In this document: positions 8,798-59,059 of the stretch, piece after piece
Numbering within the stretch: the first letter of the stretch is position 1
Layout: each line of letters begins with the position of its first letter
From: Octopus vulgaris
Taxonomy: Eukaryota
DNA length: 64,000 bases
NCBI GenBank assembly: GCA_951406725.2
Contig: OX597820.1
Coordinates: 47,492,001 to 47,556,000 of the forward strand
Direction of reading: 5' to 3'
Notes under the pieces: model-generated
Told to the model about the DNA's origin: nothing
What the model saw: the letters and a program-made list of their open reading frames with translations, nothing else
The model's database searches: none
Translations under genes and position numbers: made by a program

Positions 8798-9245
8798 ATA
8801 TGTGCCTGTGTGTGTGTGTGTGTGCATGCGTGCGTGCGTGCGTGTGCATTAAATTTGAATTATAAGCAGGTCTAATAATATAAAAATTATCGTCACAATC
8901 TTAACGTACGTGTCTTGTTTACGCGCTCATCAGCTGCTGGATAGCATCAAATGAAAAGTCCCTGACGCTGAGTGACAAAGAAACAAAAAAAAAAGAAAAC
9001 AAAAAAAAAACAACAGAAAACAAAAAAAAACACGCACACACTGTATCCTTAAACTAAGCGAGATAACACTCGTCCCATGACAAATAGAGAACGAAGGATG
9101 TCGAAATTTCTCTATTGTTGCAGCTCATCGGCATAGAGTGTACTTCTGTCATCTCCAAATCAATTAGAATTGTTGGTCTGAAGTATATATGCAAATCGGG
9201 TAGAGTATCTTTCTCTCTCTCTCCACACACATGCATATATATATA

Positions 9246-9447
9246 GGACGCCGTGATAGATCGTTAGCTCCTACACGCATTTTTTTCTCTCCTTGTTTCT
9301 CTCCTTGTTTTTTTTCTGTGTATCTTTCTGTCGAAGAGCGTAGGCTCGAAACGTAAAAGACTTTTCCTATTCCTGAGCGCTATACTAATACATTTTTTGT
9401 TTGTACTCCACCTGCTTTCGTCTTTTGTTCATTTTCGTAAACTTTCC

Positions 9448-9450
<3 letters not shown>
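9246..9450 (+). mobile_element. About 200-bp TA-embedded repeat (family P1) with hammerhead-like motif
   Basis: Homologous to 17048-17247, 58886-59053 and 42578-42690; motif at 9323-9360; (TA)n follows. Confidence 0.75.
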
Positions 9451-9511
<61 letters not shown>

Positions 9512-9516
<5 letters not shown>

Positions 9517-17047: not shown

Positions 17048-17246
17048 ATCGCTAGCCTCTGCACGCATTTTATTTCTCTCCTTGTTTCTTTCTGTGTTTC
17101 TTTTCTGTGTATCTTTCTGTTGAAGAGCGTAGGCTCGAAACGTAAAAGACTTGTTTTATTTATATTCCTGAGCGCCATACTAATACAATTGTTTGTTTGT
17201 ATTCCACCTGCCTTCGTCTTTTGTTTATTTTCATAAAGCTTCCCGT

Positions 17247-17247
<1 letters not shown>
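17048..17247 (+). mobile_element. Family P1 TA-embedded repeat with hammerhead-like motif
   Basis: Motif TCTTT-CTGTTGA-A-GAGCGTAGGCTC-GAAA-CG-TA-AAAGA at 17112-17149; (TA)n follows. Confidence 0.75.
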
Positions 17248-17307
<60 letters not shown>

Positions 17308-17313
<6 letters not shown>

Positions 17314-20090: not shown

Positions 20091-20343
20091 TAGCGATGTC
20101 GCCGTCACCGGACTCAGACAGGCTGTGAAAACCATAGGTACTGTCTCTTGTTACAGAACTAATAAATAAATAACTGGTGTTGTCAAGTCATGTGACAATT
20201 ACTACAATCGTTTATGAATAGTGAACCTCTTTGTAATCAAAATGAGAAACTCTAAGAAGAGTGTAGTTGGTTTGAAGCATCCTACATCAACAATTGAGGA
20301 GTTGCTGCTGCTGCTAACTCAAAGATCGGGTAATGCACATTAT

Positions 20344-20469
20344 GTAAATAAACATTTCATTGATTGTATTCTTCTGAAGACGGGCCTTTGCGCCAGAAAT
20401 ATATTGTGAATACACATTTCATTGACTGTATTCTTCTGAAGACAGGCCATTGCGCCTGAAATATAAGGG
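20344..20469 (+). ncRNA. 62-bp tandem duplication, each unit with a hammerhead-like core
   Basis: CTGAAGA at 20374 and 20436, each followed by a GGC/GCC hairpin and GAAATATA. Confidence 0.45.
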
Positions 20470-21559: not shown

Positions 21560-22000
21560 TGTTATTCTTCATTACATATATCTTAACCATACCAACCATA
21601 ATTAATCAATAGCTTCATTTGAAGCAACCTCTTCGCCCTTGTCATATATATATATATATACTCTCACACCCTACCTACATCCATTCATCCATTCATCTAA
21701 CCATCTATATATGTATACATGCATTCCTACATACATACATACATACATACATACATACATACATACATACATACATACATACATACATACATACATACAT
21801 ACATACATACATACATACATACATACATACGTATATGCATACATACATACGTATGTGCGGGCGTACGTAGGTATACACACACACTAGTAAAATGTGCGCT
21901 TACACGTATAATTCTACGCATTTATATACTCATATGTGCTTGTGTGTATGAGTAAATGTGTGTATGTATGTATAAACATATATATAAATATAAACACACG

Positions 22001-33615: not shown

Positions 33616-35023
33616 ATAATCCTTTCTACTGGAGGCACAAAGCCTGAAATTTTACGGGAGGGGGATAGTCGAATACATTGACCCCAGTACTCAACTGGTA
33701 CCTATTTTGTCGATCCCGAAGGGATGAAAAGCAAAGTCAACCTCAGTGGAATTTGAACTTGAAACGTAAGGAGGGACGAAATGACGCTAAGAATTTTGCC
33801 CAACGTGCAAACGATTCTGTCAGCGCACAGCCTTCATAATAATCCCTTCTACTATAGACACAAAGCCTGAAATTTTTGGGAAGGAGGCTAGTTGATTAGT
33901 CAGGTGTGTCAAGCAGTGTTTAGTAGGGTGTGTTCAAAGTGCTGTTATAGCTATCTCCATCAATCTAAAAAACAGTAGATGTATAGAAATGATATACTGA
34001 AAGAGAAATAATCTGGGGCAGTTATGACCGACTCTCCTAAAAAAGTCTTAAGCAATTTCGAGGGAAGTCTTAAGCAATTTCGATTACATCGATTACAGTG
34101 TTCAACTGGTACTTATTTTATCGACTGCGAAAGAACGAAAGGCAAAGTCACCTTCGGCTGAATTTGATCTCAGAACGTGAAGTCGGACGGTATACTGATA
34201 AACATTTTACCCGACATGCTAATGAGCCTACCAGCTCGCTGTCTTAATAGCAGTAGATATCAATTTCAAATTTTAGCATACGGCCAGTAATTTCGGGGGA
34301 GAGGGTAAGTCGATTACATCGACCCCAGGGTTCAACTGGTACTTATTTTATCGACTGCGAACGGATGAAAGGCAACGTCGACCCCGGCGGTATTTGAATT
34401 CAGAGAAATATTGCTAAGCAATTTTCCGGTGCGGTAACGATTCTTTTCTACTCGAGGTACAAGACCCGAAATTTTGGGGGAGGGAGCCAGCCGATTAGAT
34501 CGATCCCAGTACGCAACTGGTACTTAATTTATTGAACCCCAAAAGGATGAAAGGCAAAGTCAACCTCGACGGAATTTGAACTCAGAACGTAAAGACAGAC
34601 GAAATACATATTTCTTTACTACCCACAAGGGGCTAAACACAGAGAGGACAAACAAGGACAAACAAACGGATTAAGTTGATTATATCGACCCCAGTGCGTA
34701 ACTGGTACTTATTTAATCGACCACGAAAGGATGAAAGGCAAAGTCGACCTCGGCGGAATTTGAACTCAGAACGTAAAGACAGACGAAATACATATTTCTT
34801 TACTACCCACAAGTGGCTAAACACAGAGGGGACAAACAAGGACAGACAAACGGATTAAGTCGATTACATCGACCCTAGTGCGTAACTGGTACTTATTTAA
34901 TCGACACCGAAAGGATGAAAGGCTAAGTCGACCTCGGCGGAATTTGAACTCAGAACGTGACGGCAGACGAAATACCGTTGAGCATTTCGCCTGGCGTGCT
35001 AACGTTTCTGCCAGCTCGCCGCT
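33616..35023 (-). mobile_element. Cluster of about six SINE-A units, ending in a near-consensus trimer (34443-35023)
   Basis: Repeated core; one unit is interrupted by an insert at about 33900-34080. Confidence 0.9.
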
Positions 35024-42577: not shown

Positions 42578-42690
42578 TGAAATTTACAGAAAAACAAGAG
42601 ACGAAGATAGGTGTATAAACAACTAGCAGGGGTATTAGTTTGACGCTCGGGAAGGTGAGAAAGTCTTTTACCTTTCGAGCTTACGTTTCG
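42578..42690 (-). mobile_element. Family P1, truncated copy
   Basis: GTATTAGTTTGACGCTCGGGAAG...TCTTTTACCTTTCGAGC.TACG matches 58940-59000; next to (TA)n 42440-42549. Confidence 0.65.
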
Positions 42691-42776: not shown

Positions 42777-44397
42777 AAGAGAGGGAGAGAGAAATATGGA
42801 GAGAGACATAGGGAGAGTTGAAAAGAATGAACATTATTAAAAGGATTCAAGGACCTTCTTTCGTAGTAGATCCCAAATTACAAAAGAGCAAATGAATGCC
42901 AGCAGGAACCGAGTATACTTATAAATACCTCGGCAATAATTTAGAGTAAAATCCTTTATGAAGAGTCACTGATGACGGTCCGTGTCAGAAACTTTGGCTG
43001 TTGTAGTGAGGTGTAGCAAAAACCTGACGTTTCGTAAACGTAGTCTTTTTTCGAAAGAAAGCATTTTAGTTATATTTACTGATACCTTTAAACTTTCTTC
43101 AATTATAAAGAACAATCAGAATATTCATAATAATGACGACGATGATGATGATATTGATGACAACGACGATAACGATGACGCTGATGGTGATGATGATTTG
43201 ATGATGATGAATTGATGATGATAATGATGATAATGATGATGATGATATTGATAATTATAATAGTAATGAAGTTGTGGAGATGATGGTGAGGATAACAATG
43301 ACGCTGACAAACGATGATGATATTAGAATAATAATAATAATGACGATGGTGATGGCTGTGGTGGCGACAATTTTGATGAGGATGATGAGGATGATGCCAC
43401 TGCTGGTGGTGGTGTTGGCGATGATGATAATGAAGATGAGGACGACTACGAAGATGATGTTTGTATTCATGGCGATGTTTGAAGATTGCTACGCACTAAA
43501 CTACATGCTACGCCACATTACACGTCAGACCGCACCTGACCACACATTGTTAAATTTCTCACTGCACCAAGTAGCACGATATTACACCACTCAAACTCGC
43601 ACTATTCCACATCACATATCACTAACCCGTACTACATCACATCACAATACACTGTGCCACGCCACATTTCACAATACAGTAGCATATGAACCGACAAGAA
43701 AGTTCCTATGACATCACTCTACCTACCCAATTATCCACAAATTACATTTTAAGTTTCTAAAATTAAAGAAAAAAAAGATCCAAAATAATAGCGTAATATA
43801 CAGCTGTGGTTTTTTCTGTATAGACTCTCTGAGTATCTACAACTGGATAGTTCCTTTCCAAGTTGCACACCTGATTAAGAACTTTTTTTTATGATAGCCA
43901 ATGAAATAATAATAAATAATAATAAATTATAATAAATTATAATAAATTATGATAGCCCATAATTTATTATAAAGGTCAAGGTCAGAAAGTTGATGAAAAA
44001 GGAAGAATTGATTATATCGACTTCTGTATTTTATTCTTTTATTCTTTTATCTTTTATACGTTTCAGCCCTAAGGCTGTGAACATGCTGGGGCGCTGGATT
44101 GGTATTTTATTTCGTATCGATTCCGGAAGGCCGAAAGTCAAATTTGATCTTGTTGGGATTTGATATCAGAGCAAAAAAGCACAAGGTATTTGTATTTACG
44201 TATGTATGTATGTATGTATGTATGTATGTATGTATGTATGTATGTATGTATGTATGTATGTATGTATGTATGTATGTATGTATGCATGTATGTATGCATG
44301 TATGTATGCATGTATGTATGCATGTATGTATGCATATATGTATGTATGCATATATGTATGTATGTATGCATGTGTGCATGTATGTATGTATGTATGT

Positions 44398-58885: not shown

Positions 58886-58888
<3 letters not shown>

Positions 58889-59053
58889 GGTGGGGGAGAA
58901 GTCACAAAAACAGAAGACGTAGACAACAAAACAACAAACAGATGTATTAGTTTAACGCTCGGGAAGTGAAAACATCTTTAACGTTTCGAACCTACGCTCT
59001 TCCACAGAAAGAAACAAGGAGAGTAAATAAAGAATGTGTAGTGGCTAGCGATC
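58886..59053 (-). mobile_element. Family P1 copy with hammerhead-like motif
   Basis: Reverse complement TCTTT-CTGTGGA-A-GAGCGTAGGTTC-GAAA-CG-TT-AAAGA at 59012-58975; TA on both sides. Confidence 0.75.
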
Positions 59054-59059
59054 TATATA

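Follow-up and report, generated by a model that had tools for sequence, protein, structure and literature searches.

A minimal hammerhead motif with U at core position 6, carried by an abundant Penelope-like retrotransposon of Octopus vulgaris

The closest described counterparts of the motif reported here are the minimal type I hammerhead ribozymes of metazoan Penelope-like elements (Cervera and De la Pena 2014, PMC4209133). In the accessible text of that paper, the constants of these ribozymes are an unpaired base between positions 9 and 10.1, a G10.1-C11.1 pair and a palindrome at positions 15-16; stem I is short, the motif lies in the pLTR, most copies are truncated singles, and cleavage is weak even with A6. 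The octopus motif shares this architecture, including a palindromic ACGU that replaces stem III; however, its stem II is 4 bp long and its core has U6 in ~98% of our pattern matches, whereas the core variant given in that text is U3-A8. The supplement of the same paper has A6 in all rows listed, and the CUGU matches displayed there (2/3) lie outside the core. Position 6 has also changed naturally, in an otherwise intact core, in the A6C hammerhead of phage Bcep176 (accessible parts of PMC3088659 and PMC7151607); that case is one sequence, with C6 and a preference for Mn2+, whereas the octopus lineage in which U6 is fixed numbers at least 20,000 copies. Compared with Neptune and Nematis, endonuclease-positive Penelope-like elements (PMC8557442, in the text available), the element that carries our motif has a similar single ORF with DKG, RT, CX2-5CxxC, a C-terminal GIY-YIG and CCHH-like residues, as well as partial tandems, inverted truncated copies and microsatellite targeting; it differs in its unusually long, pyrimidine-rich UTRs and in its variant core. 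Non-LTR retrozymes (available sections of PMC7229834 and bioRxiv 10.64898/2026.07.22.740005) likewise have a type I hammerhead and a short repeated unit from the pLTRs of Penelope-like elements, but they are non-coding units in head-to-tail tandem arrays, whereas the copies here are dispersed truncations of a coding element and are colinear with it.

Within the window, by which we mean the whole 64,000-nt stretch of Octopus vulgaris DNA that was analysed, a relaxed type I scan identified complete hammerhead motifs at 9323+, 17112+ and 59012-, the same three that a sequence-only reading had proposed (Table 1). Each has a stem I of 5 bp and a stem II of 4 bp, and in all three the order is stem I, CUGUNGA, an extra A, GAGC-GUAG-GCUC, GAA, ACGU, H17 and stem I. 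Copies 1 and 2 show 86% similarity across 202 nt, with a difference at 1 of 38 motif positions, in agreement with the claim that the flanks are more diverged than the motif; copy 2 is also 92% alike to the 3′ end of a young full-length unit of the element described below. That reading had further held that the copies differ only at sites where a hammerhead tolerates change, and this stood for the freedom at N7 and H17; the G-U pair in stem II, taken as a sign of selection, is private to copy 3 (2 of 88 copies have T there). Copy 3, which has TA runs to either side, has lost 12 nt upstream of the core that its subfamily retains; this private deletion lies between two TTTCTGTG repeats and restores an identical join between stem I and core. 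The N7=G of copy 3 was considered as an artefact of the deletion and rejected, as G is the state of its subfamily. Copy 4 retains loop II, the 3′ half of stem II, GAAA, GGU-A (the palindrome with C>G) and AAAGA; its truncation was correctly recognized in the earlier reading, and without the CUGUNGA half it cannot form the motif alone.

Table 1. Positions, within the window, of the four copies and of their hammerhead motifs
Feature	Position	Strand	Description
Copy 1	9245..9455	+	5′-truncated 3′ end (pLTR) of Penelope-like element, N7=C subfamily
(TA)n directly after copy 1	9451-9515		
Copy 1 motif	9323..9360	+	Minimal type I hammerhead motif, N7=C, H17=A
Copy 1, stem I	9323-9327/9356-9360		
Copy 1, C3	9328		
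Copy 1, U6	9331		
Copy 1, N7	9332		
Copy 1, G8	9333		
Copy 1, A9	9334		
Copy 1, extra A	9335		
Copy 1, stem II	9336-9347		
Copy 1, G12-A14	9348-9350		
Copy 1, palindrome	9351-9354		ACGU
Copy 1, H17	9355		Predicted cut 3′ of H17
Copy 2	17049..17254	+	5′-truncated 3′ end, subfamily N7=U, H17=A
(TA)n after copy 2	17250-17310		
Copy 2 motif	17112..17149	+	Hammerhead motif, CUGUUGA
Copy 3	58887..59056	-	5′-truncated 3′ end, subfamily N7=G, H17=U
Copy 3 motif	58975..59012	-	Hammerhead motif, CUGUGGA, private G-U in stem II
Copy 4	42580..42685	-	Older copy, truncated inside stem II

The motif has stems I and II, G10.1-C11.1, a base after A9, a palindrome at 15.1-16.1 and an H17 that is not G, and these features support its identification as a Penelope-type minimal hammerhead of type I in which U replaces A6. 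The base after A9 had been described as an atypical insertion; in the accessible text of PMC4209133, however, a base at this place is a conserved feature of Penelope minimal hammerheads. The only atypical feature is therefore A6U: in 88 copies chosen by their flanks, the consensus core C3 U4 G5 A6 N7 G8 A9 is broken by U6 in 87. The same genome contains A6 sister families with cores CUGAAGA or CUGACGA, which differ from the U6 motif in their loops and in stem I (GUUU/AAAC versus CUUU/AAAG). Because these families keep the same stem II and palindrome, we regard the U6 and A6 motifs as homologous. One A6 sister family (loci L394-L396, L277-L279, L116 and L126), with the stem II and palindrome of the U6 motif, includes three copies with a common 5′ start and had no ORF in 8 upstream stretches; it may be a true non-autonomous derivative.

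The genome searched comprises 2.8 Gb in 227 contigs. The motif pattern CTGNNGAAGAGCNNNNGCTCGAAACGT gave 19,868 exact matches, of which 356 have the canonical A6, and the reversed-pattern control gave 0; the motif recurs far above chance. A further pattern search that recounted the U6 lineage gave 20,996 matches, and the downstream flank pattern matched at 21,691 places. Since the core pattern was also matched in 41 of 83 flank-picked copies, these counts suggest a total of ~40,000 element copies, probably a lower bound. Based on 93 anchor matches, 81 of which have their 3′ end in (TA)n, the TA association noted in the window extends to the repeat as a whole.

The repeat had been taken for a non-autonomous element; however, its 5′ ends are staggered (+14 to beyond -270, with most copies 150-250 nt), and long copies extend 5′ into an ORF, so that a search for a parent Penelope ORF, as suggested earlier, succeeded. 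Among the best 30 ORF loci, 27 contain the U6 motif, in all cases as CUGUUGA. The subfamily of copy 1 (N7=C) reaches the ORF in 5 of 28 loci and that of copy 3 (N7=G) is ORF-linked at L114 and L044; ORF-linked copies thus exist for N7=C, N7=G and N7=U alike. Based on this colinearity with ORF-bearing units and on the staggered 5′ ends, the ~200-bp repeat is the 5′-truncated 3′ end of an autonomous, recently active and abundant protein-coding Penelope-like element. A separate non-autonomous 200-bp element, retrozyme-like or SINE-like and copied as a unit by a Penelope partner, would agree with the size of most copies, with the single 5′ junction found in 11 of the 30 copies that most resemble copy 1 (a query-biased set) and with the common 5′ start of the ORF-less A6 sister family, but the stagger of the 5′ ends, the colinear sequence at the 3′ end of ORF-bearing units and the ORF-linked copies in each subfamily checked all contradict it, and head-to-tail arrays of a 200-bp unit were not seen in the loci read. 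We consider such an element most unlikely, and largely refuted already.

We read the structure of the autonomous unit from 16 stretches of 15 places, chosen for long open frames. The full unit is 4.47 kb long, and full units are 94-99.7% alike. In 11 of the 15 places a 5′-truncated copy is joined directly upstream, giving a partial tandem (pLTR-ORF-pLTR) in which both pLTRs carry an identical U6 motif, located ~790 nt ahead of the start codon in one and ~100 nt short of the 3′ end in the other; inverted pairs of copies occur at L068, L071, L072 and L283. One natural copy has an intact ORF of 1,079 amino acids, in which we identified DKG, YIDD, CSRPRCRTC and, at the C-terminus, a GIY-YIG-like motif. 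Pfam found RVT_1 in this protein above the cut-off (E = 1.4e-7) and GIY-YIG weakly, below the cut-off (E = 0.0065), and returned 0 families for a partial protein; 1,126 homologues with RT domains were present among 7,997 scored. The element thus has the single RT and GIY-YIG ORF, the pLTR partial tandems and the 5′-truncated and inverted copies of endonuclease-positive Penelope-like elements, and CSRPRCRTC, which precedes GIY-YIG, conforms to the Neptune/Nematis linker CX2-5CxxC. Judged from this linker, the element appears to fit the Neptune/Nematis type. Its unit ends in TTATATA, which abuts genomic (TA)n and from which the sequence also runs on at the tandem junction, suggesting that priming may occur on TA repeats through short homology.

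To describe variation in the motif we used copies chosen by the downstream flank pattern, blind to the core; of 102 matches, 8 lacked a motif within reach because of truncation or deletion and 1 was out of register, and the rest yielded the 88 unique copies. In these, N7 is C in 24, U in 28, G in 14 and A in 22, and H17 is A in 70, U in 15, C in 2 and G in 1; every other motif position, the outermost base of stem I excepted, has a single state per subfamily. We then clustered the copies at three thresholds, using the flanks and nothing else. Between clusters, 0 of the 30 sites in the core, stems and palindrome differed, compared with 40, 39 and 44 out of 125 sites in the flanks (p = 5e-5, 9e-5 and 2e-5), so the expected excess of motif conservation over the flanks was found. 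A test of fixed versus private differences was weaker (p = 0.02, 0.06 and 0.06). Loop II (GUAG) is likewise constant between subfamilies. We also compared the youngest subfamily (22 copies) with the oldest of those sampled well, whose 19 copies were selected by a pattern in which the 5′ half of the motif is held constant; the two differ at 1 of 36 motif columns versus 51 of 145 flank columns (p = 2.5e-5). The old copies depart by 19% from the column majority, alignment noise included, which at the rate quoted in the accessible text of PMC13282606 would correspond to tens of millions of years if that rate is assumed to apply. In the oldest U6 subfamily, position 6 is U in 81, C in 11, A in 7 and G in 1 of 100 copies, and no flank marks shared by a separate A6/C6 branch were evident among them.

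A dead relic carried neutrally, its motif constant by chance or through low mutability, would lead one to expect the decay that single copies do show at all motif positions. Private changes per site amount to 1-2% in the core and stems versus 4-7% in the flanks, so part of the gap may reflect mutability, or alignment noise in the T-rich flanks. However, the CpG of the palindrome, the spot most mutated in single copies (19 changes in 176 letters), is never fixed in another state between subfamilies, and N7, which lies within that motif, has changed again and again. When a tree was built from the flanks only, using 65 copies picked by hand, it took the shape of a single ladder with good support for 13 of 62 inner branches; along this ladder, there are at least 4 changes of N7 and three of H17. 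Given these patterns, and the cluster comparison above, we consider a neutral relic very unlikely. As a separate observation, N7 (window position 9332) changes along the lineage more often than the average flank site.

Stem II was rewritten with its pairing kept in 6 older U6 copies (e.g., GGGC/GCCC, GGAC/GUCC and GGAU/AUCC), and in 20 hand-picked copies both-sided changes occurred in 6 of 10 pairs, a value that 0 of 500 shuffles equalled. With the A6 sister families, these compensatory changes bear out the covariation of stems across related families that had been predicted; because paired cases were favoured in choosing them, and most of them are single copies, we treat them as support and not as proof. 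About 28 lineage-like double mutants occurred among the matches listed, and ~1/3 of these pair (counted by eye), no more than transitions give. In contigs of four runs with four organism labels, N7 and H17 are the only motif positions with variants and coverage accumulates over the motif, although such data cannot show RNA ends or expression. The fixed core and stems beside changing flanks, together with the compensatory changes, argue that the hammerhead fold has been under selection since A6U.

Since the motif stays constant across successive subfamilies, it probably still does its job, and on balance we think it likely that the A6U hammerhead is still a self-cleaving ribozyme, albeit a slow one that would need a dimer and the element's protein. 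Transcription from the upstream pLTR would give an RNA with two motifs, the ACGU palindromes of which could pair to form a stem III, which is missing from a monomer. This folding may be helped by the RT-endonuclease protein, by analogy with the Poseidon element of anole, for which the accessible text of PMC11167929 reports hammerhead cleavage only with its own protein. The GIY-YIG domain would then cut one strand at (TA)n, and reverse transcription would be primed near the TATATA of the RNA; its early stops would leave the ~200-bp relics. A6U is presumed to lower the cleavage rate without abolishing cleavage; cleavage by natural A6C hammerheads is slow or occurs with Mn2+ (PMC3088659 and PMC7151607, in the parts available). 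The pattern of free and fixed positions follows catalytic rules, and we counted it in favour of the predicted activity.

The same selection could act on a fold in which A6U switched cleavage off and which is kept for binding of the element's protein or a host factor or for pairing of two RNAs (packaging or template switching), a reading that we take seriously but rather doubt. In vitro, changes at A6 are highly damaging: a mutational scan found low activity for every single change in the CUGA turn (PMC9901934), and A6C in a fast hammerhead reduced the rate from 0.3 to 3.55e-6 per min, ~85,000-fold, at 0.3 mM Mg2+ (PMC7151607), as stated in the accessible portions of both papers. In those of PMC11167929, hammerhead mutants left the insertion of the anole element in vitro unaffected and no RNA ends lay at its cut site, and in those of PMC8557442 Naiads spread without hammerheads. 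In the octopus copies, there is no excess of insertion 5′ ends at the predicted cut site (1 of 83); such ends are also absent from the anole element. Loop II, as fixed as the core and not needed for the chemistry, is equally explained by a binding role. For both monomer and dimer, the minimum-energy structure is predicted to be a rod with U6 paired to A15.1 and not the hammerhead dimer, and motif monomers fold no better than shuffles (z = -0.6 to -1.6); in free RNA, U6 is predicted to favour this inactive rod (U4-G, G5-C, U6-A15.1) by giving it one more pair. Against a non-cleaving fold, the freedom in the motif is catalytic in kind, with N7 free, H17 being A, U or C but not G as a subfamily state, and G8 and G12 fixed, and a mere binding site is not expected to obey a no-G rule at H17. 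Beyond the slow, assisted cleavage that we favour for this element, an active natural CUGUNGA class, in which an animal retrotransposon lineage fixed A6U long ago, kept the other catalytic requirements over many master copies and cleaves only with its own protein, a dimer or an unusual metal, may exist, though we put this forward tentatively.

Hammerhead cleavage in Penelope-like elements is weak and, in the accessible text of PMC11167929, was dispensable for insertion in vitro of the one reconstituted element, which raises the question of why these elements carry hammerheads. The U6 lineage is a natural experiment on this question, in which a base regarded as near-essential was changed and the rest remained under purifying selection in a young, intact, high-copy element. 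If the U6 motif cleaves, the natural hammerhead consensus widens and scans are shown to undercount; if it does not, the fold is kept for another purpose. CUGUNGA cores are invisible to CUGANGA-based scans, so, if the former holds, some Penelope families scored as hammerhead-less may have one. Lunse, Weinberg and Breaker reportedly listed very many small Penelope-associated hammerhead variants in 2017, and U6 may therefore be among them. In the available text of the retrozyme preprint (bioRxiv 10.64898/2026.07.22.740005) and of the Naiad preprint, the descriptors are CUGANGA-type or relaxed. We found no natural U6 hammerhead in the openly accessible literature on hammerheads, that on octopus included, nor in the accessible portions of PMC11014351, PMC6765202 and PMC6155905. 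The kind of element and the ribozyme motif are thus known, and what is new is the U6 core at very high copy number, together with the evidence for its continuing selection that was drawn above from the comparison of copies.

We searched for independent U6 families with a pattern that forced a change at pair 10.2/11.2 (113 matches). Two apparent extra families were rejected, the first for its lack of stem I and its G at H17 and the second as a canonical CUGAAGA hammerhead read in the wrong register. Versions with a longer stem II gave 109 matches versus 15 for the control, and those listed are mostly insertion mutants of the U6 lineage. In metagenomes, the U6 motif had 118 matches, 8 of them with a paired stem II versus ~6 expected by chance, and none of the 118 lies near a Penelope ORF; no relatives were found in viral contigs. 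Two metagenome contigs, L451 (1501-1528) and L485 (604-631), have a near-identical U6 architecture with a different stem I, and these may be single mutated copies of an A6 family. Rfam covariance models gave 0 matches on the pLTR (L146:1500-1800) at E up to 10, and on the window no hammerhead among the 150 of 443 rows listed, which contain microsatellite noise.

Other repeats, most of them hammerhead-like, were observed in the genome and in the window. A separate repeat family with ~60 copies among the matches listed (L247, L248 and L252-L262) has a CUGUUGA...GAAACGUG stretch without stem I and a CUGAUGA upstream. At L249 and L250, around 1490-1535, a canonical CUGAAGA minimal hammerhead family adjoins AAT/AAC repeats and is probably another Penelope family. 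In the window, 2.6 tandem copies of a 184-bp SINE-like repeat lie at 34492-34975, and many loci are flanked by the same repeat. Two more minimal hammerhead-like motifs with a paired stem I occur at 42964-43002 (+) and 18646 (-), with the canonical cores CUGAUGA and CUGACGA, respectively. Two 62-bp tandem units at 20343-20465 (+) each have a canonical CUGAAGA hammerhead-like core with an imperfect stem II, and are possibly a decayed retrozyme or another Penelope end.
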